Source: a virus (taxonomy: Duplodnaviria; Heunggongvirae; Uroviricota; Caudoviricetes). From it: DNA of 41,286 nt. The stretch is from positions 1-41,286 of IMG/VR virus record IMGVR_UViG_2851933302_000002. One strand, given 5' to 3'. Each line of letters starts with the position of its first letter. The stretch's first letter is position 1. The position numbers were made by a program, and so were the translations under genes. This document shows positions 1,422-18,893 of this stretch, one piece after another. A model generated the notes under the pieces. The model ran no database searches. It worked only from the letters and a program-made list of their open reading frames with translations, and was not told where the DNA came from.

Positions 1422-3893
1422 TTAAAAATCAGCCTGATTCGGGATCAGTTTTTGCCAGATAGCTGAAACGTATTTTGCCTGGTAACGGGCATCATCCAGC
1501 GCATTGTGGCGCTCACCTTCGAATGGGATAGCAGTTCTGGCATCGAAGTCTACGGCTTTCCCCAGCTCAACGATTGTGCGTACATCGCGATCGTTGCAGT
1601 AGCGCCACGGGCAGGGGATACCCTGTCGTTCGTATGAACGGCGCAAAATCGTGTTGTCGAAGTTGGCCCCATTACCCCAGACCTGAACAAAAAACTCACC
1701 GGAGTTTTCGTCGATAAATTCCCGCAATTGCAGTAGTGCATCATCTAACGGGATTTCATCGGTCATAATGGCAGACTGCGCTTCACGTGATTGCTTCAGC
1801 CACCATTTAATGACGTCACGATCAATGACTCCGCCAGCAGTATCCAGATCGATGGTCTTGCTAAATTCTGGTCCCATATCTCCGGTTTGCGGATCGAAAA
1901 ATATTGCGCCTATTGAGATAATCGGGGCATCGGGATTTTTTCCCATGGTTTCAAGGTCGATCATCAGATGAATCCCCGCTCTGCTGGTGGATGTGAGATT
2001 ATGATGACTGTTCGCCTTAATTAAGGGATCTGACGCCTCGCCAGTTTCACTATCGCTGGCATGATGCTGATTGCCGCCAGTGTTCTCCTTGTGCTGATGT
2101 GCAGTACCTTCCATTTCCTCCGGATCATTTTCCTGAACTTCAGGCTGATTCTCTTCATCGAATATTTCCTGGTATGTTGCGTCGCCCATCACCGCGCCAC
2201 AATCAGGGCAGTTGCCGCCGCCGGTCTGACCGCAGGCGGTGCAGACTTTTTCCGGTTCCTGTTGCGCCACTGGTTCAGGCTGTTTCGTTTCTGGCTCGTT
2301 TTGTAACGCATTTGGGCTGTTTTGTTCCGCTTTCTGGTCGTTCTGTTCCGTTTCTTGCTGGTTCTGGTTCACAGAATCGCGGGTTTCAATCCCCTTCACC
2401 CATTTCGGATCATTCGGGTCGCTAATCCCTGCAACAAATTCACCACGTGATGCGGCGAGCAACTGATTGGCGTCAGGCTGGCTGATATTGGCTGCCTGCA
2501 TAATTTTCTTTACTTCGTCAGCGGTAACTTTTACCGGTTCTGGTTGTTCAGAATTTTGTGCGGTATTTGCATTTTGCGGTAAGCCTGTGTATGTGCCATT
2601 TTTTCGGGCAAAATATTCTTCTTTTGTGATTTCAGTAGCCCCGGCAGCCAGCGCCTTATCCAGACCAGAAAGTTTGTTTGCGCGACCGTATTTTTCGCAA
2701 TCCTTGTCGGTGAAGAAGAAGTAGAACGGCCCCTCACGCTCTACAGATGGTTCGACTTCCACTTTGCATTCGGTTTTTTCGTTGTCCGGAATTGCCGTTT
2801 CCACTGCATCAGTTTCTGGTACTGGCGACGAGAGAGTGTCAGTTGCGCTCTGATTTGTTCCTTCATCTTCAAACACGCCCTTTGTAGTCAGGTATTCAGT
2901 AATGTATTTGTTCAGTGCCACAGGGTCTTTGTGAATGTCGATCGGACGTTCACGGACAAGGCCAAAAATAGTCTGGCGGTCGTAGCGAAGGGCATCAGGC
3001 TGTTTGCGCATTGATGCCGAGATACTCTTCCAGTCTTCGCGGTCGTTGTCGATAACTTCATTTTTTGCCCAGCGATGGATGCTGCCGTCAATGTTTCCGG
3101 CATCCACATCACCAGGCCAGAGAGCGTAGGCCAGTTCGTCATCCAGTGTTTTCCATGTCTGCTTATATTCGCGACGAATGACTGCAGTGACAGGGGGGAT
3201 TTTTTCTGCTGAGTTTTCAGTGTGCTGTCGGTGGACTCTGGCGCGGGCGAGATCAACAACAGACGTGTATTTTCCGGTTTCCTTGCGTTCACCTTCGCGA
3301 CGTTTTTTCCAGATGCGCATCTCTGCCTGAATTTCGGGCCATTTGGCACCAGGCTTACATTTATGCTTAACCCACCCGATGGCATGCAGCTTAAGCTCCG
3401 GATACATGGCGTTAACTTCTGGCATTTTCATCAACGCTTCAACGATATGTCCGTCGAATGTTGCCATGTCTTCCTGCAACAATTCCTGCGCGCTAATCAC
3501 CATATCAACGGTGATGTTTTCACATGTGTCGAACTTAACCATGACAGCGTTCTGTACTTCAGGGGCCAGCTTGTCAAAAGCGACGTTCATCGGATCTGAT
3601 TCAGTCTCAACCGGGACAAAGGAAGTAGCCCCCTCATCCCAGCGGTTTTCCTGCATATATTCAGCATCCCATGAATCGAGGGCAGGGCGGGGTATACCGG
3701 GTTTATCCTCGCAAACAAGAAATTTATAAGCGCAGTCCTGAGCAGCCGGATAATGCTCCAGGAATTGCCAGTGAAATTTTGCGCGGGCGCGACGTTCATC
3801 ACCGGCTTCAATGGCAGTGGCTACAGCGACTGCACCTTCTTCCTTTATTGCCTGTTCGTCCGGAATGGCGGCGCAAATAAAGACTTTACTCAT
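1422..3893 (-). CDS. Large phage exonuclease with C-terminal DnaQ-like DEDDh 3'-5' exonuclease domain and internal zinc ribbon
   Basis: 823-aa ORF. C-terminal DEDDh motifs are visible: Exo I (IDLET), Exo II (NGANFDNTIL), Exo III (HNALDDARYQ). A central CTACG...CPDCG zinc ribbon is flanked by Q/E/N-rich low-complexity linker. Sits where exo/recE genes lie in lambdoid prophages; no recT/bet partner is seen. Confidence 0.75.
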   Translation of the reverse strand: MSKVFICAAIPDEQAIKEEGAVAVATAIEAGDERRARAKFHWQFLEHYPAAQDCAYKFLVCEDKPGIPRPALDSWDAEYMQENRWDEGATSFVPVETESDPMNVAFDKLAPEVQNAVMVKFDTCENITVDMVISAQELLQEDMATFDGHIVEALMKMPEVNAMYPELKLHAIGWVKHKCKPGAKWPEIQAEMRIWKKRREGERKETGKYTSVVDLARARVHRQHTENSAEKIPPVTAVIRREYKQTWKTLDDELAYALWPGDVDAGNIDGSIHRWAKNEVIDNDREDWKSISASMRKQPDALRYDRQTIFGLVRERPIDIHKDPVALNKYITEYLTTKGVFEDEGTNQSATDTLSSPVPETDAVETAIPDNEKTECKVEVEPSVEREGPFYFFFTDKDCEKYGRANKLSGLDKALAAGATEITKEEYFARKNGTYTGLPQNANTAQNSEQPEPVKVTADEVKKIMQAANISQPDANQLLAASRGEFVAGISDPNDPKWVKGIETRDSVNQNQQETEQNDQKAEQNSPNALQNEPETKQPEPVAQQEPEKVCTACGQTGGGNCPDCGAVMGDATYQEIFDEENQPEVQENDPEEMEGTAHQHKENTGGNQHHASDSETGEASDPLIKANSHHNLTSTSRAGIHLMIDLETMGKNPDAPIISIGAIFFDPQTGDMGPEFSKTIDLDTAGGVIDRDVIKWWLKQSREAQSAIMTDEIPLDDALLQLREFIDENSGEFFVQVWGNGANFDNTILRRSYERQGIPCPWRYCNDRDVRTIVELGKAVDFDARTAIPFEGERHNALDDARYQAKYVSAIWQKLIPNQADF

Positions 3894-4362: not shown

Positions 4363-4911
4363 TATCGCGTCCTCAACAATGAATTTTGTGATGCGGTGCC
4401 TGGTGCCTCCAGGTGACGTTAACCAGTTAACAATTAACGCCGGATACAGAGAATCCACCCATAACACTGTTTTTGGTTTTAACTGTTCCGCGTGCGCTTA
4501 GCCGCATTCACTGCATCACAAAATTCACTTTAAAAAGGGTGGCAGAGCAGTCACGGAGTAGAACTGATGCCACCAAAGACTACACATGGATATTGTGGCG
4601 GGGCTGTCACTTAAGCGTATGGTCAGCCTGACAACCCGGTGTCCTCAAGGGGAAGGAATAACCCCGCCATACTTACCGCCGCGCCATTTCGCGGATTGCC
4701 ACAACCGGAAGCGCACGGTCGAATTAAATTTAACGACAAAGTACAGAGAGACGAGCTTCTCCGTGTGCTTTCGCGTTATGCTCTGACTTTTCAGAGAAAT
4801 ATCCTTTCAGTAAACTGTCAGTGCCGGATGTTCACCCGTGTCCGGCGCACGCACTCCACTTCACCCGTGGAGAACTCCTTAATTACCAACCTTAGCTTCG
4901 TTGGTTAGCTA

Positions 4912-10159: not shown

Positions 10160-10846
10160 ATGACCCCAATAAAAATATTTATGACTATTGCTGATTTCAA
10201 ACGGCCTAAATTGGAGCTCCCAAACGGGGCAAACAAACTACTACTGCACTCTTGCTGTGCTCCATGTTCCGGTGAAGTGATGGAGGCGCTTCAGGCCTCG
10301 GGAATCGACTACACCATCTTTTTCTACAACCCGAACATTCATCCTCAGAAAGAGTATTTAATTCGTAAGGATGAAAATATTCGCTTTGCTGAACAACACG
10401 GCGTGCCGTTTATCGATGCTGATTACGACACCGACAACTGGTTTGAACGTGCCAAAGGAATGGAATGGGAGCCTGAGAGGGGGATCCGTTGTACCATGTG
10501 TTTTGACATGCGTTTTGAGCGGACAGCGTTGTACGCTGCTGAAAATGGTTTCAGTGTGATCAGCAGTTCACTGGGCATTTCACGCTGGAAAAATATGCAG
10601 CAGGTTAACGAGTGTGGGCGGCGAGCTGTTGCGCATTATCCGGGTATGGTGTACTGGGATTATAACTGGCGCAAGCAGGGCGGCTCGTCCCGTATGATTG
10701 AAATCAGCAAGCGCGAAAAATTCTATCAGCAGGAATATTGTGGCTGTGTGTATTCTCTGCGCGATACCAATCTACACCGCAAATCTCAGGGACGCCCTCT
10801 TATCAAAATTGGCCAACTCCACTACGGAAAAGAAGAGAAGGAGTGA
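10160..10846 (+). CDS. QueH-like protein (DUF208, epoxyqueuosine reductase family)
   Basis: 228-aa ORF with the [11 protein letters not shown] motif and further Cys residues (CTMC, CGC) that I recall as characteristic of DUF208/QueH. Family assignment is from memory of the motif. Confidence 0.65.
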
Positions 10847-11083
10847 TTTTATGGATCACCTTTCTGATTGATTTCATATTGGCGAGGTGACGTGAGTTAA
10901 GTAGAATGGCTGCGGGTGCTTGAGGCTATCTGTCTCAGGCATGAACACTGAAAGGCAGATAGAGAAAAGCCCCAGTTAACATTTCGCGTCCTGCAAGACG
11001 CTTAACATTAATCTGAGGCCCAATCTATGTCTCACAAATGTAGGTTAGCCTCTTACGTGCCGAAAGGCAAGGGGAAGCAGGCT

Positions 11084-11239
11084 ATGAAGCAGCAAAAGGC
11101 GATGTTAATCGCCCTGATCGTCATCTGTTTAACCGTCATAGTGACGGCACTGGTAACGAGGAAAGACCTCTGCGAGGTACGAATCCGAACCGGCCAGACG
11201 GAGGTCGCTGTCTTCACAGCTTACGAACCTGAGGAGTAA
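11084..11239 (+). CDS. hok: Hok/Gef-family type I toxin (HokD/RelF-like)
   Basis: 51-aa peptide MKQQKAMLIALIVICLTVIVTALVTRKDLCEVRIRTGQTEVAVFTAYEPEE, matching my recollection of HokD. Structured leader upstream (10860-11080) would hold mok/sok elements. Terminator follows at 11310-11337. Confidence 0.9.
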   Translation: MKQQKAMLIALIVICLTVIVTALVTRKDLCEVRIRTGQTEVAVFTAYEPEE

Positions 11240-11309
11240 GAGACCTGGCGGGGGAGAAATCCCTCGCCACCTCTGATGTGTCAGGCATCCTCAACGCACC
11301 CGCACTTAA

Positions 11310-12736: not shown

Positions 12737-13102
12737 ATGACTGAACGCATAGAATTTGTTTTGCCTTACCCGCCAACGGTGAACACTTACTGGCGACGTC
12801 GTGGCAGCACATATTTTGTATCAAAAGTCGGTGAGCGTTATCGCCGTGATGTGGCGCTTATTGTTCGCCAGCAGCAACTGAAATTAAACCTGTCCGGAAG
12901 GCCGGCAATAGAAATTATTGCAGAGCCACCGGATAAGCGCCGTCGTGACCTGGACAATATCCTGAAGGCACCACTGGATGTACTGACGCATGCGGGGCTG
13001 CTCATAGACGACGAGCAGTTTGATGAAATTAATATTGTGCGCGGTCAGCTTGTTCCTGGTGGGCGGTTGGGGATAAAAATCACAGAACTGGAGTACGCAT
13101 GA
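12737..13102 (+). CDS. rusA: Holliday junction resolvase RusA
   Basis: 121-aa ORF with the RusA-like N-terminal motif (LPYPPTVNTYW) and an acidic catalytic region. Classical position upstream of Q. Confidence 0.85.
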   Translation: MTERIEFVLPYPPTVNTYWRRRGSTYFVSKVGERYRRDVALIVRQQQLKLNLSGRPAIEIIAEPPDKRRRDLDNILKAPLDVLTHAGLLIDDEQFDEINIVRGQLVPGGRLGIKITELEYA

Positions 13103-13788
13103 ATAACCAGTATTTACAGTTTGTTCGTGAGCAACTCATGATTGCCACCGCCGATTTGAGTGGATCAACAAAAGGGCAGCTTGAGGCCTGGCAGGAGAAT
13201 GCCATGTTTGATACAGGGCGTTACAGGCGTAAAAAAATCCGGTACCGCGATGAAGTGACTGGAAAAATGATAACGCGGGATAATCCACCAATCCCGGGAA
13301 AGCAATCGCTGGCGAAGGGGGTGTCAATTCCTCTCGTCAGTCCGGTTGAGTTTTCGACATCATCGTGGCGGCGGGCTGTTCTGTCTCTTGAAGAACATCA
13401 TAAAGCCTGGTTGTTGTGGTGTTACAGCGGGAGTATTTGTTGGGAATATCAGATCGCGATAACGCAGTGGGTGTGGAATGAATTTAAAACCCGGTACGGC
13501 ACCAGAAAAATTGCAGGGAAAACGCAGGAGCGCGTGAAGAAGTTGATCTGGCTGGCGGCACAGGATGTCAGAGGATGGATTACCGGGTGTGAGGTCTACC
13601 AGAGACAGGAGCTTGCCAGACTGTGTGGAGTTAAGCCTGATAACTGGAGCCATAATTATGCGAACTACTGGCGTGAGATGTGCGATATTTTTAAGAGTCT
13701 CGATAGAGAATCTGTGATTTGCACCGTGAAAATAAGAGCGCAACAAAAAGCGACTTTTTCACGACGAGATATTGCAAAAGTCAATTAA
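13099..13788 (+). CDS. Late-gene antiterminator Q-like protein (phage 82/Qin QuuQ type)
   Basis: 229-aa ORF overlapping the rusA stop (ATGA). Size and position fit the large Q family; followed by a promoter/terminator-like intergenic region. No motif-level confirmation. Confidence 0.55.
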   Translation: MNNQYLQFVREQLMIATADLSGSTKGQLEAWQENAMFDTGRYRRKKIRYRDEVTGKMITRDNPPIPGKQSLAKGVSIPLVSPVEFSTSSWRRAVLSLEEHHKAWLLWCYSGSICWEYQIAITQWVWNEFKTRYGTRKIAGKTQERVKKLIWLAAQDVRGWITGCEVYQRQELARLCGVKPDNWSHNYANYWREMCDIFKSLDRESVICTVKIRAQQKATFSRRDIAKVN

Positions 13789-13857
13789 ATAGCGTACGTT
13801 TCGTATAAATCTGATATTTTGCCGATTTTGTACGCGATGGCAAAGTAAGAAAAAAAA

Positions 13858-13880
13858 CTGCCGTCAGGCGGTTTTTTTTT
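13858..13880 (+). terminator. Candidate tR'-like terminator downstream of Q
   Basis: Short 5-bp hairpin (CTGCC-GTCA-GGCGG, one G-U pair) followed by T9 and preceded by A7. Confidence 0.5.
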
Positions 13881-14002
13881 ATGCCCAAAATCGCGTCAGT
13901 ACAGTAAACACGCTGGTGGTTGCGAATACGGGTCTTTCAGCTTGCTGGCTTTTTCGACAAGAGTTATTGGTATGTCACGTTAACCGGAAAAAGGAAAAAG
14001 AC

Positions 14003-14350: not shown

Positions 14351-15400
14351 ATGCTTAATACTGTAAAAATATCCAGTTGTGAGTTAATCAACGCCGACTG
14401 CCTGGAATTTATCCGGTCGTTACCCGAAAATTCTGTTGACCTGATAGTCACGGACCCGCCGTACTTTAAAGTGAAGCCTGAGGGCTGGGATAACCAGTGG
14501 AAGGGCGACGATGATTACCTGAAGTGGCTGGACCAGTGTCTGGCGCAGTTCTGGCGGGTGCTGAAACCTGTCGGAAGTCTTTACCTGTTCTGTGGTCATC
14601 GCCTGGCATCTGATATCGAAATCATGATGCGTGAACGCTTCAGTGTGCTGAACCATATTATCTGGGCGAAGCCGTCCGGACGCTGGAACGGATGCAACAA
14701 GGAAAGCCTGCGGGCGTATTTCCCCGCCACAGAGCGCATTCTGTTCGCGGAACATTATCAGGGGCCGTATCGTCCGAAAGATGCCGGGTATGCGGCGAAG
14801 GGCAGTGCACTGAAACAGCATGTGATGGCCCCGCTGATTTCTTACTTTCGTGATGCGCGCGCGGCCCTGGGGATAACGGCAAAACAGATTGCAGATGTCA
14901 CAGGAAAGAAAAACATGGTGTCGCACTGGTTCAGTGCCAGTCAGTGGCAGCTACCGAACGAAAGCGATTATCTGAAATTACAGTCGCTGTTTGCCCGGGT
15001 GGCAGAAGAGAAACATCAGCGCGGTGAACTGGAAAAGCCCCACCACCAGCTGGTGGATACGTATACGTCACTGAACCGGCAGTATGTGGAGCTGCAGAGT
15101 GAATATAAGCATCTGCGGCGGTATTTTGGTGTGACGGCGCAGGTGCCGTACACGGATGTATGGACACATAAACCGGTGCAGTTCTATCCCGGGAAACATC
15201 CGTGCGAAAAACCGGCAGAAATGCTGCAGCAGATAATCAGCGCAAGCAGTCGTCCGGGTGACCTGGTTGCAGATTTTTTTATGGGCTCAGGTTCAACGGT
15301 AAAAGTGGCACTGGCGCTCGGGCGTCGTGCGATTGGCGTTGAACTGGAGACCGGACGTTTTGAGCAGACAGTCAGGGAAGTTCAGGATTTAATCGTTTGA
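14351..15400 (+). CDS. DNA methyltransferase (beta-class N6-adenine/N4-cytosine type, orphan)
   Basis: 349-aa ORF with motif IV DPPY (TDPPYF) preceding motif I FxGSG (FFMGSGST), i.e. permuted beta-class order. No adjacent restriction endonuclease gene. Confidence 0.85.
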   Translation: MLNTVKISSCELINADCLEFIRSLPENSVDLIVTDPPYFKVKPEGWDNQWKGDDDYLKWLDQCLAQFWRVLKPVGSLYLFCGHRLASDIEIMMRERFSVLNHIIWAKPSGRWNGCNKESLRAYFPATERILFAEHYQGPYRPKDAGYAAKGSALKQHVMAPLISYFRDARAALGITAKQIADVTGKKNMVSHWFSASQWQLPNESDYLKLQSLFARVAEEKHQRGELEKPHHQLVDTYTSLNRQYVELQSEYKHLRRYFGVTAQVPYTDVWTHKPVQFYPGKHPCEKPAEMLQQIISASSRPGDLVADFFMGSGSTVKVALALGRRAIGVELETGRFEQTVREVQDLIV

Positions 15401-15449
15401 AACGGATGAGATTGCAGAATTAATTACGCACCATTATTATTCTGCTCCC

Positions 15450-15525
15450 GGCCCTTTAGCTCAGTGGTGAGAGCGAGCGACTCATAATCGCCAGGTCGCT
15501 GGTTCAAATCCAGCAAGGGCCACCA
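15450..15525 (+). tRNA. ileZ: tRNA with anticodon CAT (Ile2/Met type; ileZ-like)
   Basis: 76-nt cloverleaf. Acceptor stem GGCCCTT/AAGGGCC, anticodon CAT at 15483-15485, T-loop GGTTCAAATCC, 3' CCA. Confidence 0.85.
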
Positions 15526-15532
15526 TCACATA

Positions 15533-15609
15533 CCGCCATTAGCTCATCAGGAAAGAGCGCCAGCTTTCGAAGCTGGTTGCGCGGAGTTCGGGTCCCCGAA
15601 GGCGGTCCA
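15533..15609 (+). tRNA. argN: tRNA-Arg (anticodon TCG; argN-like)
   Basis: 77-nt candidate. Anticodon stem CCAGC/GCTGG with loop TTTCGAA (anticodon TCG), 3' CCA. One mismatch in the acceptor stem and one in the T-stem. Confidence 0.7.
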
Positions 15610-15622
15610 TTATCTGTATCCT

Positions 15623-15699
15623 GCGTTGTTAGCTCAGCCGGACAGAGCAATTGCCTTCTAAGCAATCGGTCACTGGTTCGAATCCAGTACAACGCGCCA
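15623..15699 (+). tRNA. argO: tRNA-Arg (anticodon TCT; argO-like)
   Basis: 77-nt cloverleaf. Acceptor GCGTTGT/ACAACGC, anticodon loop CTTCTAA (TCT), T-loop GGTTCGAATCC, 3' CCA. Confidence 0.85.
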
Positions 15700-15714
15700 C
15701 ACTTATTTTCCCTG

Positions 15715-15737
15715 GCTCGCTTTTGCGGGCTTTTTTT
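15715..15737 (+). terminator. Terminator-like hairpin after the tRNA cluster
   Basis: GCTCGC-TTTT-GCGGGC hairpin followed by T7. Confidence 0.55.
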
Positions 15738-15743
15738 AAATGT

Positions 15744-15960
15744 CTCACAATTCAGGCGGTTGACTGTTGTCTGGTTTGCGGGGAGTTTGTTAAAAGAAAC
15801 TGGCATGGTGAATCCCCCTGTGCGGAGGGGCAATCAGCGAGTAGGTATATGGGATAATCGCGGATTCAGGTGCTGGTACTGAATTCACCGGGAGGCACCC
15901 GGCACCATGCAATGGCACATAGCGCCACTCTCCAGCCCCTCTCCGGAGGGGCTTTTCTGT
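15744..15960 (+). repeat. Structured repeat unit, copy A (promoter-like TTGACT plus hairpins plus terminator)
   Basis: Shares blocks with copy B: CTCACAATTCAG..GTTGAC, GCATGGTGAATCCCCCTG.GCGGAGGGGC, CACCGGGAGGCACCCGGCACCATG, and the terminator hairpin AGCCCCTCTCCGGAGGGGCT followed by T-run. Confidence 0.6.
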
Positions 15961-16147
15961 GCCGGATACATCACAGTTTCTGGAACCTTAGGTACTACAG
16001 TATCAGTCAGGGTGCTATATTTTCAGATGTGATGAAAGCCTGTCAGCAGGCAGGGCGTATCGGAAATGACCCAGTAGAGAAAACGTTGACTCAGATACCG
16101 GTGCTGAGTTACCGGGAAACCGGCATCACATGACCGCTATCCTTCCA

Positions 16148-16174
16148 GGCCCATCCGCTCCGGTGGGCCTTTTT
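16148..16174 (+). terminator. Rho-independent terminator between repeat copies
   Basis: GGCCCA-(10-nt loop)-TGGGCC hairpin followed by TTTTT. Confidence 0.6.
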
Positions 16175-16211
16175 ACTGCAGAAAACAGGTTCCCCGTTAA
16201 ATGCTATGTTG

Positions 16212-16446
16212 CTCACAATTCAGTAAGTTGACAGTTGCCTGTCAGACTGGGCATTTGTTAAAAAAATTTCGCATGGTGAATCCCCCTGAGCGGAGGGGCG
16301 ACTGGTGACGGTATAATCTCTGATTATCAAAACGAGAATGACGCGGGTTTAGTGGCACCGGGCTGAACTCACCGGGAGGCACCCGGCACCATGTGCATGA
16401 TGATACAGATACGCGGCTTTAGCCCCTCTCCGGAGGGGCTTTCTTA
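16212..16446 (+). repeat. Structured repeat unit, copy B
   Basis: Second tandem copy of the copy A element. Contains TTGACA, a perfect TATAAT at about 16309-16314, the same GC hairpins and the AGCCCCTCTCCGGAGGGGCT terminator hairpin. Confidence 0.6.
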
Positions 16447-16451
16447 TGGAC

Positions 16452-16480
16452 AAAAAAAGCCCGCGCTGGGAGACGCGGGC
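16452..16480 (-). terminator. Minus-strand rho-independent terminator
   Basis: GCCCGCG-CTGGGAGA-CGCGGGC hairpin preceded by A7 on the plus strand, i.e. a T-run after the hairpin on the minus strand. Confidence 0.5.
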
Positions 16481-16673
16481 GGCAAGGAATAAACAATAAA
16501 ACGTGAAGTAATATTTCAGCTGGCGAATAATACCCCATAGTAATCACTCTGCGCAACTGCGCGGTCTTTTTCGAATTGCGGGCTGTAGTCTCCCTTCTGC
16601 CATTGTCCTGTAACTTCCGGACTTCAGCCTGCTCCTTATCTGACTCACAACATTATCCCGCCCGGGAGGATTC

Positions 16674-18527
16674 ATGGCATTTAAACACTATGACGTGGTC
16701 AGGGCGGCATCGCCGTCAGACCTTGCGAAACGACTGACACAAAAACTGAAGGAGGGCTGGCAGCCGTTTGGTAGTCCGGTGGCCATAACCCCTTATACCC
16801 TGATGCAGGCGATTGCAGCAGAAGGTGATGTGGTCGTCAGTGGTGCAACTGAGCCGGAGTGGTACTACGTCATCGTACTGGCCGGGCAATCCAATGCCAT
16901 GGCTTACGGTGAAGGGCTTCCGCTTCCGGATTCATACGATGCGCCCCATCCGCGCATTAAGCAACTGGCCCGTCGTAACACAGTGACTCCCGGTGGTGAA
17001 GTATGCGTATTTAACGACATCATTCCTGCTGACCATTGTCTGCATGATGTTCAGGATATGAGTACGATTAACCATCCCCGGGCTGACCTGAGCAAAGGGC
17101 AGTACGGCTGTGTCGGACAGGGCTTACATATTGCCAAAAAACTGCTTCCGTATATCCCTAATAATGCGGGGATCCTGCTGGTACCATGCTGTCGTGGTGG
17201 TTCGGCATTCACCCAGGGCACGGAGGGGACATTCAGCGAGTCCACGGGAGCCAGTCAGGATTCGGCTCGCTGGGGAGTGGGTAAGCCGTTATATCAGGAT
17301 CTGCTTTTCCGCACGAAGGCAGCATTGCAGAAAAACCCGAAAAACGTTTTGCTGGCGATATGCTGGATGCAGGGGGAATTCGATATGACGAATGCCAGTT
17401 ACGCCCAGCAGCCAGCAGCATTTCTTGCAATGGTACAGCAGTTCCGTGCTGACCTTGCCGGGCTGGCGGCGCAGTGTCACGGTGGAAGTCCGGCATCAGT
17501 CCCCTGGATTTGTGGCGACACGACATACGCGTGGAAACAAGAACACGGTACGCAATATGAAGTGGTATATGGTGCATATAAAGGTAAAGAATCCCAGCAG
17601 ATTTATTTTGTTCCCTTTATGACCGATGGTAGCGGAGTTAATACACCGACAAACAACCCGTCAGAAGATCCTGATATTGCCGGGTCTGGTTATTACGGTT
17701 CGGCATCCCGAACGAACAAAAACTGGGTATCATCAAATCGCCCGACGCATTTCAGCTCATGGGCGCGTCGTGGCATTATTCCCGATCGTATGGCAACTGC
17801 TATTCTGAACGTAGCCGGTCGCACCTTAGCCTTCATTAGTGGTAAGGCACCGGAAATCAAACCCTCGCCCGGCGGCGACACGCCATCGGGGCCGTCTGAA
17901 GATGCATCCATACGCACAATCTCCCTGTTGCCGACAGCCGGAGACGCTGCTGCGCAGGGCTGGAGCATTAAGAATGGCGGAATTCAGTTGTCAGATGGTG
18001 TATTTAAGATCACCAAGCAGAGCAATAAAGCCTGGTCCCTGACGCGCCCGGTGGATGACGCAGTCTCCCTGCTGACACGGGGTGGCAGACTGAGCTGTAA
18101 GTTTCGACTGTCAGGCGCACTGACCAACAACCAGTTCGGTCTGGGAATTTATCTGTATACCGATGTAGCGTTACCTGACGTCGTGGCGATGACCGGGACT
18201 GGTAACCCGTTCCTGATGTCGTTCTTCACCCAGACCACAGACGGCAAACTGAATCTGATGCATCACAAGAAAGCAGGAAACACAAAGTTGGGCGAGTTCG
18301 GGAATTACAGTAACGACTGGCAGACGCTGGAGCTGGTGTTCACCGCCGGCAGTGCCACGGTTACTCCGAAACTGAATGGAGTGGCTGGCCCGGCATTCCA
18401 GGTCATAAAAGACAGTCTGACACTGGGGCTGAATGCGCTGACGCTGACGGATATTACCAAAAATGCAGCGTATGGCGTTGAGATAGAAAGTCTGGTGCTG
18501 GAGATAAATGCACCGGCATCATCATAA
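16674..18527 (+). CDS. nanS-p: Prophage sialate O-acetylesterase (NanS-p-like; SASA esterase domain)
   Basis: 617-aa ORF with SD GGGAGGA. N-terminal module followed by an SGNH/SASA-like esterase motif (VLAGQSNAMAYG). Sits between the tRNAs and the lysis cassette, as in Stx-type lambdoid phages. Confidence 0.75.
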   Translation: MAFKHYDVVRAASPSDLAKRLTQKLKEGWQPFGSPVAITPYTLMQAIAAEGDVVVSGATEPEWYYVIVLAGQSNAMAYGEGLPLPDSYDAPHPRIKQLARRNTVTPGGEVCVFNDIIPADHCLHDVQDMSTINHPRADLSKGQYGCVGQGLHIAKKLLPYIPNNAGILLVPCCRGGSAFTQGTEGTFSESTGASQDSARWGVGKPLYQDLLFRTKAALQKNPKNVLLAICWMQGEFDMTNASYAQQPAAFLAMVQQFRADLAGLAAQCHGGSPASVPWICGDTTYAWKQEHGTQYEVVYGAYKGKESQQIYFVPFMTDGSGVNTPTNNPSEDPDIAGSGYYGSASRTNKNWVSSNRPTHFSSWARRGIIPDRMATAILNVAGRTLAFISGKAPEIKPSPGGDTPSGPSEDASIRTISLLPTAGDAAAQGWSIKNGGIQLSDGVFKITKQSNKAWSLTRPVDDAVSLLTRGGRLSCKFRLSGALTNNQFGLGIYLYTDVALPDVVAMTGTGNPFLMSFFTQTTDGKLNLMHHKKAGNTKLGEFGNYSNDWQTLELVFTAGSATVTPKLNGVAGPAFQVIKDSLTLGLNALTLTDITKNAAYGVEIESLVLEINAPASS

Positions 18528-18612
18528 AAAGTGAGCCAGCCAAATGGAAGGTATCGTTAAACTCACCGGTAGTGTCAGTGGGTCGTCTGAGATGCCTGCA
18601 TGAGTTATCAGA

Positions 18613-18643
18613 GCCATCAGTACTTAACTGGTGGCTTTTTTTA
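18613..18643 (+). terminator. Terminator-like hairpin after nanS-p
   Basis: GCCATCAG-TACTTAA-CTGGTGGC hairpin (one G-T pair) followed by T8. Confidence 0.5.
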
Positions 18644-18677
18644 TTGTTGTCAGCTTCCGGATAACGGGAGACGGGGT

Positions 18678-18893
18678 ATGTACCAGATGGAAAAAATCAC
18701 AACAGGTGTGTCATACACCACGTCAGCGGTGGGAACGGGCTACTGGTTCCTGCAGTTGCTGGACAGGGTTTCCCCGTCTCAGTGGGCGGCAATAGGCGTG
18801 CTGGGGAGTCTGCTGTTTGGGCTGCTGACATATCTGACTAACCTGTATTTCAAAATCAGAGAGGACCGTCGTAAGGCTGCACGGGGAGAGTAA
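18678..18893 (+). CDS. S: Holin, phage 21 S-type pinholin with dual start
   Basis: 71-aa product [13 protein letters not shown]...[36 protein letters not shown], near-identical in its C-terminal two-thirds to my recollection of S21. Dual-start Mets at 18678 and 18687. Confidence 0.85.

Follow-up and report, generated by a model that had tools for sequence, protein, structure and literature searches.

The region from 15739 to 16673 of the window (the whole stretch of DNA that was analysed, 41,286 nucleotides long) is best read as a set of clustered genes for small non-coding RNAs, located in a lambdoid prophage at the "moron" slot of its late operon, a reading to which we give a probability of about 0.72. 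It draws on RNA family assignments, folding and covariation, on synteny and the limits of the slot, and on distribution across genomes. The content of the region is largely ordinary biology that has been described before, and convergent sRNAs at the same moron site were reported earlier (Tree et al. 2014), so that the current view of prophage sRNAs is unchanged. What is new is a three-unit array and its middle member, which lacks annotation.

The region lies downstream of a Q gene (PF06323, 13099-13788) and an N6/N4 DNA methylase gene (14351-15400), both identified with Pfam. ARAGORN located three tRNA genes on the plus strand, Met(CAT) at 15450-15525, Arg(TCG) at 15533-15609 and Arg(TCT) at 15623-15699, and the cluster (15450-15699) was also matched by the Rfam tRNA model; the CAT tRNA is tRNA-Ile (ileZ-type) according to PGAP in strain CE10, which carries this prophage (NC_017646.1, 1469100-1470040), and to the Sakai annotation. 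An intrinsic terminator on the same strand (15714-15738, stem GGCTCGC/GCGGGCT followed by T7) closes the tRNA unit and forms the left edge of the moron slot. The right neighbour of the slot is a NanS-p-type SASA esterase gene (16674-18527, plus strand; Pfam DUF1737, SASA and DUF6645), named 'SASA family carbohydrate esterase' by PGAP, and Pfam places holin, lysozyme and Rz genes downstream of it. ARAGORN and Pfam therefore agree with the original prediction of three tRNAs (CAT, TCG, TCT) after Q and the methylase and before a nanS-p-like gene.

Protein coding in the region was rejected because no ORF is supported (the longest in the ORF listing that overlaps 15700-16673 has at most 109 aa) and because indels and compensatory substitutions account for the differences between the copies described below. 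In PGAP this 1-kb stretch either carries no annotation or has a single call, a partial pseudogene on the opposite strand that is spurious. Terminator-like sites are abundant, with 10 observed against 1.6 expected. Five such hairpins lie on the plus strand (15714, 15934, 16147, 16421 and 16549), all inside 860 bp, and one site on the minus strand (16480-16459). Terminators beyond the repeats, on both strands, had been anticipated and are present, the minus-strand one being assigned here to a convergent sRNA gene.

Two of the plus-strand units are members of the STnc100 family. The covariance-model search of Rfam suggested with the original prediction identified both repeats as full-length RF02076, unit a at 15774-15964 (136.3 bits, E = 4.6e-30) and unit b at 16242-16451 (165.4 bits, E = 1.6e-37), each over model positions 1-206. 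These E values place the full-length matches far above chance, and both scores exceed the RF02076 gathering score of 47 bits. Direct repeats join the two units at 15744-15831/16212-16299 (80% identity) and 15879-15909/16363-16393 (97%), and their global identity is 68%. Two structured repeats of about 200 nt had been noticed before and are confirmed, but they are not adjacent: the copies are spaced 468 bp apart, with a diverged third unit between them.

The promoter region of unit a (15744-15802, plus strand) has a CTCACAATTCAG box, TTGACT, a -35-like TTGTCT (15767-15772), a 17-nt spacer and a -10-like TTAAAA (15790-15795). That of unit b (16212-16270, plus strand) has the CTCACAATTCAG box, TTGACA, a -35-like TTGCCT (16235-16240), a 17-nt spacer and TTAAAA (16258-16263). 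The TTGAC(T/A) boxes (15760 and 16228) to which a promoter role had been given are indeed there, but they stand 24 nt from the likely -10 TTAAAA, and the properly spaced -35 (TTGTCT or TTGCCT) begins 7 nt beyond them. The promoter region of unit a is conserved in seven copies (alignment A1). In the window the -10-like hexamers end 6-8 nt upstream of the closing helix P1, as they do in the Raoultella and Kosakonia copies when the sequences are read by eye, and the 5' end of PasD2, known from RNA-seq/Northern, lies at the equivalent base, GCAUGG (PMC8550237 Table S6). We infer promoter activity for both units. The RNA of unit a probably runs from about 15803 to 15958, with a modelled P1-P2-P3-P4-P5 domain, a linker (15912-15933) and a terminator at 15934-15953; that of unit b probably runs from about 16271 to 16445, with a linker at 16394-16420 and the predicted terminator at 16421-16440.

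Minimum free energy (MFE) folds of a and b reproduce the STnc100 consensus structure, a closing helix around hairpins followed by a terminator hairpin, and units a, middle and b have in common the MFE architecture P1-P2-(P3)-P4-P5-linker-terminator. In an alignment of 14 sequences, which takes in the Kosakonia, Atlantibacter and Raoultella copies and PasD2, compensatory changes occur in 12 of 28 pairs, mostly in P1 and P4. P2 and P5 are invariant across genera, which a plain base-pairing sRNA does not explain and which hints at an extra partner; a weaker possibility is that the 5' multi-helix domain, common to enterobacterial genera, could be a platform for some protein or for RNA polymerase. 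A pattern scan of genome contigs (TGGTGAATCC-N65-95-GGGAGGC) proved too unspecific: of 120 loci almost all were chance matches, the true homologues being the Kosakonia, Atlantibacter and Raoultella loci only.

In units a and b the terminator ends in a short U tract (UUUUCUGU and UUUCUUAU), which suits neither termination nor Hfq binding well, so that read-through could yield longer products. For EcOnc27, as the family is called in E. coli O157:H7, Northern blots give about 235/247 nt (PMC4104026 Table S2), more than the roughly 177 nt from P1 to the terminator, and the assigned 5' or 3' end may therefore be wrong. The STnc100 family is multicopy in lambdoid prophages. Its bodies are mosaic, being assembled from a small set of variable-region and linker types: the L003 copy has a b-like 5' end and an a-like 3' end, and L009 has an a-type body at the third position. 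Tandem copies consequently probably differ in their targets, and units a and b, which have different linkers, are probably not redundant.

Transcription, Hfq binding and target pairing are carried over, by analogy, from papers on homologues. In EDL933, RNA-seq reads fall on all 11 STnc100 copies and STnc100_4 was positive by Northern (PMC5331693), and in Salmonella LT2 RpoD was bound at STnc100 promoters (PMC10794520). In Sakai, EcOnc27 and EcOnc28 are Hfq CRAC peaks (PMC4104026 Table S2). We found that these two peaks map to the 3' part of the Rfam matches in Sp5 and Sp9, and that the Sp5 homologue (207.7 bits), located downstream of stx2B, overlaps the EcOnc27 peak. For PasD, RIL-seq targets are available, with chimeras to many mRNAs in trans. 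STnc100 itself is not known to have a validated target or phenotype, save an overexpression effect cited for EcOnc27 (PMC12711010). The option of small RNA genes, one of two that the original prediction had offered for the repeats, is borne out by the Rfam matches and by homologues that are transcribed and in some cases Hfq-bound (PMC5331693; PMC4104026 Table S2).

Between a and b lies a diverged STnc100-type unit (16003-16176, plus strand). It matches RF02076 with 30.1 bits (E = 5.8e-4), below the 47-bit gathering score. It has an extended -10, TGcTATATT, at 16013-16021, its promoter being a consensus match only, a predicted RNA of about 16027-16176, a linker at 16132-16146 and a terminator at 16147-16170 followed by T5. 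Despite the different sequence, its MFE fold has the architecture of a and b (z = -2.6). In phage PhiR5_2 this unit is 84-92% identical, against 62-69% for a and b, which makes it the best-conserved part of the array. A variant in L004 and L009 keeps P2 and the terminator by means of different sequence, and overall P1, P2, P4, P5, the extended -10 and the terminator are kept despite sequence turnover. Of 5,426 complete E. coli genomes, 672 (~12%) have the middle unit and 344 the three-unit array, and the STnc100-middle-STnc100 order recurs in three different backgrounds. We tentatively suggest that the DNA between the repeats may be a third sRNA gene, a paralogue of STnc100/PasD, and that a-middle-b may form a conserved cassette of three sRNA genes that alternates in one slot with stx2AB and other morons. 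Read as such a gene, again as a suggestion that we hold with reserve, the middle unit would have had its "invariant" hairpin sequences replaced and its fold kept, with its own extended -10 and the best terminator of the three.

A convergent sRNA gene of the EcOnc08/21/42 type occupies about 16453-16634 on the minus strand, with a CCUUGCC seed, a terminator at 16480-16459 followed by T7, and a promoter-like ATGCCA-17-GATAAT at 16680-16652, from which a start at about 16634-16645 would be expected. By eye the locus is about 93% identical to the PP6 locus of E2348/69, where the RIL-seq sRNA E2348C_1409.E2348C_1408.IGR has 182 nt and the target motif GGCAAGG. In a four-sequence alignment of window positions 16400-16700 the mean column identity is 90% and CCUUGCC is kept. 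The EcOnc08/21/42 probe matches the plus strand at 16526-16560 with a few mismatches by eye, and homology that includes the seed places the gene in this type. The unit matches no Rfam family, the best being a weak OmrA-B match of 25 bits. AsxR and AgvB (RF02703 and RF02702), the anti-sRNAs that occupy this position in Sakai and have some 42 conserved nt in their 3' region, have no match in 15400-18800 at E up to 1, and the Sakai AsxR/AgvB loci score 56-96 bits with their own models. Identification as AsxR/AgvB was accordingly rejected, the RNA body and terminator also being different (alignment A3). HnrS was considered as another candidate for the minus-strand unit, but by eye the unit has no evident similarity to the 3' end of mazF, which HnrS is said to match. 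A plus-strand terminator-like hairpin, CTGCGCAACTGCGCGG followed by TCTTTTT, lies within the gene (16549-16571), and a GCGCAGTTGCGCAG element is invariant in seven of seven loci (alignment A3).

The slot can be delimited by comparison with Stx2a phages, in which the order is tRNAs, stx2A, stx2B, one STnc100 and nanS-p. Positions 15302-15738 (methylase end, tRNAs and terminator) are 90% identical to these phages, and positions 16213-16775 are 89-92% identical to the segment after stx2B. The boundaries, 15738/15739 and 16212/16213, coincide with unit starts, and 15739-16212, comprising unit a and the middle unit, stands in place of the 1.3-kb stx2AB cassette. With tblastn, Stx2A and Stx2B found nothing better than E = 0.45 in the whole window, and no stx gene is present. 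The Stx-phage-like layout without toxin genes is as first described, and the placement of the repeats in the toxin locus holds for unit a (with the middle unit) but not for unit b, which in Stx2 phages normally resides downstream of stx2B. By position and homology, unit b corresponds to EcOnc27. Since stx2AB and a + middle are exact alternatives between the tRNA terminator and the CTCACAATTCAG box, the site offers a precise junction for studies of toxin gain and loss.

In the model that we propose, the plus strand carries three paralogous units head to tail (a, middle, b) on the same strand as the late genes. Each would have its own sigma-70-type promoter and start on the first base of the 8-bp closing helix P1 or directly beside it; P1 encloses three or four predicted hairpins (P2 to P5), with a single-stranded linker and an intrinsic terminator after it. 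Units a and b are STnc100 members (EcOnc27/sRNA103 in EHEC; PasD-related) and the middle unit is a diverged paralogue with the same fold. The promoter of the minus-strand gene would overlap the start codon of the esterase gene, and the 3' ends of this convergent gene and of unit b would lie back to back. Transcription of the units in the lysogen would be constitutive, would stop at their own terminators and would give stable RNAs of about 150-180 nt, whose variable linker, and perhaps a variable internal region, may pair with host or prophage mRNAs aided by Hfq. During lytic growth, Q-modified RNA polymerase from a Q-adjacent promoter would pass the five plus-strand terminators and so reach the genes for the esterase and for lysis. 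The model supplies three of these elements by inference: the use of the promoters, the ends of the RNAs in the window and the Q read-through.

The units could instead be mainly cis-acting, as an array of terminators that in the lysogen insulates the esterase and lysis genes from transcription begun at the tRNA or moron promoters, or as a structured 5' leader with control over the gene downstream, in which case the free RNAs would be by-products. The five plus-strand terminator-like hairpins in 860 bp are in keeping with this, as are the weak U tracts of the a and b terminators, which could let some transcription pass. In Raoultella scottii, moreover, the domain lies directly upstream of a small lipoprotein ORF with no terminator seen between them, and StxS is a precedent for a terminated leader that doubles as an sRNA (PMC7547250). 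However, one terminator would be enough for insulation, which has no need of a covarying multi-helix 5' domain, and units with their own promoters add transcription instead of only blocking it. The homologues bind Hfq, those PasD chimeras are with mRNAs in trans, and the downstream gene is variable: nanS-p, iraM on the opposite strand (L009) or a further unit. We therefore regard a mainly cis-acting role as unlikely.

Units a and middle might also be non-functional debris: once stx or another moron had been lost or exchanged, recombination between prophages at the conserved unit boundaries would have left them behind. Recombination is frequent in the late regions of prophages, the slot boundaries match unit starts, and the unit bodies of L003 and L009 are mosaic, all of which would suit such an origin. 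Decay is nevertheless hard to reconcile with unit a, whose STnc100 match is full-length and high-scoring and whose promoter and terminator are intact, or with a middle unit that has kept its fold, -10 and terminator and its 84-92% identity with PhiR5_2. The recurrence of the array in three backgrounds and of the middle unit in 672 genomes also argues against debris, and we consider it quite improbable.

The original prediction had further proposed that the repeats might be duplicated late-promoter/pause/terminator modules, that is, copies of pR'-qut-tR' at which Q loads on RNA polymerase. Every unit does have a promoter and then a terminator within ~180 nt, as in lambda 6S RNA or StxS, and the units sit upstream of lysis genes; in PhiR5_2 the array lies ~540 bp after the Q-position gene, with neither tRNAs nor methylase between. 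In the window, however, a promoter-like region with a strong terminator lies directly after Q (13789-13881, plus strand), with TATAAA at ~13803 and GCCGTCAGGCGGT followed by T9 at 13860-13872. It is a candidate pR'/tR' by position and conservation, its blocks being conserved in E2348/69 PP2 after a Q of 62% identity. From the Q stop codon (13788) to the unit starts the distances are 1.9, 2.2 and 2.5 kb, with a small ORF, the methylase gene, the three tRNAs and a terminator in between, so that the units do not follow Q immediately. Each Q has its own specific recognition sites, and STnc100 accompanies at least three unrelated Q-position genes: PF06323 here, a 144-aa Q in Sakai Sp5 and a dissimilar 204-aa protein in PhiR5_2. 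Near the Raoultella and Kosakonia copies no Q gene was seen. The pR' start site of Sakai Sp5 has been mapped beside Q, ~2.2 kb upstream of the STnc100 copy and not at it (PMC7547250). Alignment of the window with the Sp5 Q-to-tR' region (blastn), the comparison proposed at the outset, gave chance-level matches only, the sole one touching 15700-16673 being 17 nt on the minus strand (16450-16466, E = 0.3), and nothing in the repeats resembles the StxS region. Position, the unrelated Q-position genes and the lack of likeness to StxS led us to reject the duplication as highly improbable.

Read as a cluster of small RNA genes, the stretch is dense in regulatory RNA genes of families already linked to virulence regulation in EHEC and EPEC, and the middle unit is a family member overlooked by covariance-model annotation. 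The value of the analysis is mostly one of correction and annotation.

Among the closest known systems is STnc100 itself (RF02076; EcOnc27 or sRNA103 in E. coli O157:H7), with which a and b share the fold, the position in the late region and the placement just upstream of nanS-p. In Stx2a phages a single copy, 89-92% identical to unit b, lies ~75 nt after stx2B (PMC12370729, PMC12711010), whereas here there are three tandem units and no toxin gene upstream. The Rfam model begins ~29 nt before the likely transcript start and thus takes in the promoter spacer and the -10. PasD1 and PasD2 of EPEC (EcOnc13 in EHEC) have the same promoter layout as the units, the same position upstream of an esterase gene, the same 5' sequence (GCAUGGUGAAUCC) and a P1/P2/P4/P5-like 5' domain, and common ancestry of STnc100 and PasD has been proposed (Zhu, Shabalina and Storz 2026). 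Units and PasD diverge beyond the P5 region (alignment A1): the units lack the 3' half of PasD, where the UGUGAG seed and the long-U terminator lie, and the PasD Northern probe region CCUUGUGAGUUCUGGCUGCGCAUG, searched with as many as 3 mismatches allowed, was not found in the window. Units a and b were accordingly rejected as PasD, both probe and seed being absent; PasD2 itself falls below the STnc100 gathering score.

StxS and lambda 6S RNA resemble the units as short terminated late-operon transcripts that Q-modified polymerase reads through, and StxS became an Hfq-dependent sRNA too (PMC7547250). It starts at pR' directly after a 144-aa Q, whereas the units lie 1.9-2.5 kb beyond a PF06323 Q. 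The arrangement as a whole is like that of the convergent pairs of Tree et al. 2014 at the moron site downstream of pR', EcOnc27/AsxR in Sp5, STnc100/AgvB in Sp10 and EcOnc28/EcOnc03 in Sp9. There, as in the window, a minus-strand sRNA comes immediately after a plus-strand STnc100-type RNA and runs towards it, the two lying between the moron and the conserved esterase ORF, with the common GCGCAGTTGCGCAG element upstream of the minus-strand gene. The minus-strand RNA of the window is the other allele known from this position (EcOnc08/21/42), not AsxR/AgvB, and is longer, ~182 nt in EPEC.

The window represents a lambdoid prophage of E. coli, in which the gene order runs from RusA through Q (13099-13788, PF06323), a 65-aa ORF, an N6/N4 methylase (14351-15400), three tRNAs (15450-15699, by ARAGORN and Rfam) and a NanS-p-type esterase (SASA/DUF1737/DUF6645; 16674-18527) to holin, DUF1327, lysozyme and Rz, with protein genes assigned by Pfam. 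The tRNA with anticodon CAT is labelled tRNA-Ile (ileZ-type) in the CE10 and Sakai annotation. Among the matches listed, CE10 (O7:K1) and 17 other genomes are 100% identical over 15400-16700, and at least 80% of this segment is carried by 340 of 5,426 complete E. coli genomes. The original prediction that stx genes are absent was borne out, as tblastn across the whole window revealed no Shiga-toxin homologue (lowest E = 0.45). In the early/nin region, 10914-11089 (+) matches the Rfam sok antitoxin RNA (120.5 bits) and adjoins a hokD type I toxin CDS (CE10 annotation, ~11086-11241). A full-length Rfam match (61.1 bits) to DicF, an sRNA inhibitor of cell division that is typical of Qin-like prophages, lies at 4537-4588 (-). 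A gene for QueH, epoxyqueuosine reductase (PGAP; ~10183-10848 (+), mapped from CE10 locus L001 784-1449), is located inside the prophage a few kb upstream of the tRNA cluster, placing a phage-borne tRNA-modification gene near phage tRNAs. In the 150-nt gap that separates the esterase stop codon from the holin gene, a hairpin (CCATCAGTACTTAACTGGTGG) followed by a T-run (CTTTTTTT) was seen by eye at 18613-18645 (+); no PasA/PasC-type sRNA and no other Rfam match was found there, in contrast to E2348/69 PP2.

Repeats had been predicted between the tRNAs and the esterase, and they are real: 15744-15831 and 16212-16299 are 80% identical, 15879-15909 and 16363-16393 are 97% identical, and ten terminator-like sites were observed in 15700-16673 against 1.6 expected. 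Both repeats are full-length matches to the prophage sRNA family STnc100 (Rfam RF02076), namely unit a at 15774-15964 (136 bits, E = 4.6e-30) and unit b at 16242-16451 (165 bits, E = 1.6e-37), which confirms the earlier suggestion of small RNA genes. A third RF02076 match, the middle unit (16003-16176), scored 30.1 bits (E = 5.8e-4) in a permissive scan, under the 47-bit gathering score. The locus therefore consists of three units arranged head to tail, repeating every ~230-240 nt, and the notion of two copies separated by a spacer has to be abandoned. RefSeq/PGAP annotates zero ncRNA anywhere in 15700-16673. Opposite unit a it places a partial pseudogene ("hypothetical protein, missing C-terminus"; 15793-15918 (-), from CE10 L001 6394-6519), a call that is probably an artefact of annotation across a structured RNA gene.

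The minimum-energy folds of all three predicted RNAs share one architecture: an 8-bp helix (P1) beginning at the first nucleotide, a P2 hairpin, a variable P3 region, a P4 hairpin, a P5 hairpin stacking on the 3' strand of P1, and a single-stranded linker followed by the terminator hairpin. The middle unit forms this fold from different sequence (P1 AUGUGAUG/CAUCACAU, P2 GCCUG/CAGGC, P5 CCGG-GAAA-CCGG). The 5' domain was aligned for 14 sequences, among them Kosakonia, Atlantibacter and Raoultella copies and PasD2; 12 of 28 predicted pairs are kept by two-sided changes, so selection acts on the RNA structure. These compensatory changes cluster in P1 and P4. P2 and P5 are sequence-invariant across genera. 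In Raoultella scottii, a copy of the 5' domain with P1, P2 and P5 conserved (L066 3034-3165 (-)) stands immediately before an ORF for a proline-rich lipoprotein of 69-74 aa (2789-3013 (-)), with no terminator seen between them. The site is chromosomal, flanked by a class A beta-lactamase-like gene and by a dcp-like gene. Such a layout suggests that the 5' domain can also work as an mRNA 5' leader.

Units a and b have -35-like hexamers (TTGTCT and TTGCCT, respectively) 17 nt upstream of TTAAAA, and P1 starts 7 nt past TTAAAA, at 15803 and 16271. The TTGACT and TTGACA boxes first described as promoter-like lie 7 nt upstream of these hexamers, too distant from the -10. In the middle unit, an extended -10 (TGcTATATT, 16013-16021) precedes P1 at 16027. 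From these elements, transcription of each unit is predicted to start at P1. This is supported because the PasD2 5' end, from RNA-seq coverage and Northern size, coincides with the equivalent GCAUGG (PMC8550237 Table S6), and because -10-like hexamers likewise end a few nt before P1 in the Raoultella and Kosakonia copies, read by eye. The Rfam STnc100 model appears to include ~29 nt of promoter. The terminator U tracts of units a and b are short (UUUUCUGU and UUUCUUAU), and that of the middle unit is UUUUU. EcOnc27, the copy downstream of stx2B, measures ~235/247 nt by Northern (Tree et al., PMC4104026 Table S2), against ~177 nt from P1 to terminator in the corresponding Sakai Sp5 copy (L006 2952-3128). 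The real ends may lie elsewhere, or most of the product may be read-through RNA; the excess would reflect either a start near the CTCACAATTCAG box or terminator read-through. The hexamer CUCACA, which EPEC RIL-seq gives as the PasD target motif (PMC8550237 supplementary file 9), lies at 15744-15749 and 16212-16217 (+), within the conserved box that precedes units a and b, and again at 16645-16650 (+), ~25 nt before the esterase start codon.

It had also been proposed that the repeats are late-promoter modules (pR'/tR'). Directly 3' of Q, 13789-13881 (+) holds a promoter-like TATAAA around 13803 and, at 13860-13872, a strong terminator (GCCGTCAGGCGGT) followed by T9; blocks of this segment are conserved downstream of the 62%-identical Q of E2348/69 PP2, and it is probably the prophage's true pR'/tR', with a leader of only ~65 nt. 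The STnc100 element is found with three unrelated genes in the Q position, the Sakai pR' start site is mapped beside Q with StxS as its terminated product (PMC7547250), and no similarity was found between StxS and the window repeats. For these reasons the units are very unlikely to be pR'/tR'.

Back to back with unit b lies a convergent minus-strand sRNA gene, to which the terminator at 16480-16459 is assigned. AsxR and AgvB were ruled out, as there is no Rfam match and the RNA body differs in an alignment of seven such loci. Over 16400-16700, mean column identity is 90% over four sequences, including the E2348/69 PP6 locus (~93% to PP6 by eye). That locus encodes the 182-nt RIL-seq sRNA E2348C_1409.E2348C_1408.IGR, an EcOnc08/21/42 homologue that has the target motif GGCAAGG and counts cfa as one of its partners. 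The window keeps the CCUUGCC seed, and by homology its RNA would span ~16453-16634; a promoter-like ATGCCA-17-GATAAT (16680-16652 (-)) overlaps the esterase start codon.

The entire array with the minus-strand gene is present in PhiR5_2 (79% identity), the sole carrier among 50,697 phage records, where the gene before it in the Q position is unrelated and tRNAs are absent. Compared with the window, the middle unit of PhiR5_2 is best conserved (84% overall, 92% over 16091-16176), against 62-69% for the RNA bodies of a and b. E. coli 4/2-1 has STnc100, middle unit and STnc100 in a row, the last body being 92.5% identical to unit a, with iraM next on the opposite strand. The middle-unit variant of PhiR5_2 and 4/2-1 retains P2 and the terminator via different sequence. 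Among 5,426 complete E. coli genomes, 344 have the full array, 672 the middle unit and 2,868 any STnc100-like match, with as many as 12 places in one genome. Each unit body is a mosaic drawn from a small set of variable-region and linker types; linkers differ between a and b, and it is in the linker that PasD has its seed. The copy in LC645409 has a b-like 5' end and an a-like linker.

The elements are a known family in a known arrangement. EDL933 has 11 STnc100 copies, all with RNA-seq reads, and STnc100_4 is Northern-positive (PMC5331693); in Salmonella LT2, STnc100 promoters are bound by RpoD (PMC10794520). Two groups noted a copy ~75 nt downstream of stx2B that overlaps the Hfq-binding sRNA EcOnc27/sRNA103 (PMC12370729, PMC12711010), and PasD and STnc100 share a common structure and probably ancestry (Zhu, Shabalina and Storz, bioRxiv 2026). 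Sakai bears out the arrangement described by Tree et al., with convergent sRNAs at the moron site: STnc100 matches in Sp5, Sp10 and Sp9 (146-208 bits) are each directly followed by a minus-strand AsxR or AgvB-type match, and the EcOnc27 and EcOnc28 Hfq peaks, once coordinates are shifted by +142 from one genome version to the other, map to the 3' part of the STnc100 matches. For the window copies, these homologues serve to predict transcription, RNA ends, targets and any dependence on Hfq. What the present analysis contributes is a third unit of diverged sequence, an identification of the convergent gene, the array frequency and the exact boundaries of the slot relative to stx2AB.

Sakai Sp9 shares the window's layout of Q, methylase, tRNAs and esterase, except that it has two tRNAs and one STnc100 copy. 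In the Stx2a phages LC616079 and LC645409 the order is tRNAs, stx2A, stx2B, a single STnc100 and nanS-p. Homology to the window (blastn) breaks at 15738/15739, right behind the tRNA terminator, and at 16212/16213, at the CTCACAATTCAG box of unit b, which is present in both layouts. Hence the 474 bp spanning unit a and the middle unit form an exact alternative to the 1,338-bp stx2 promoter-stx2AB segment.
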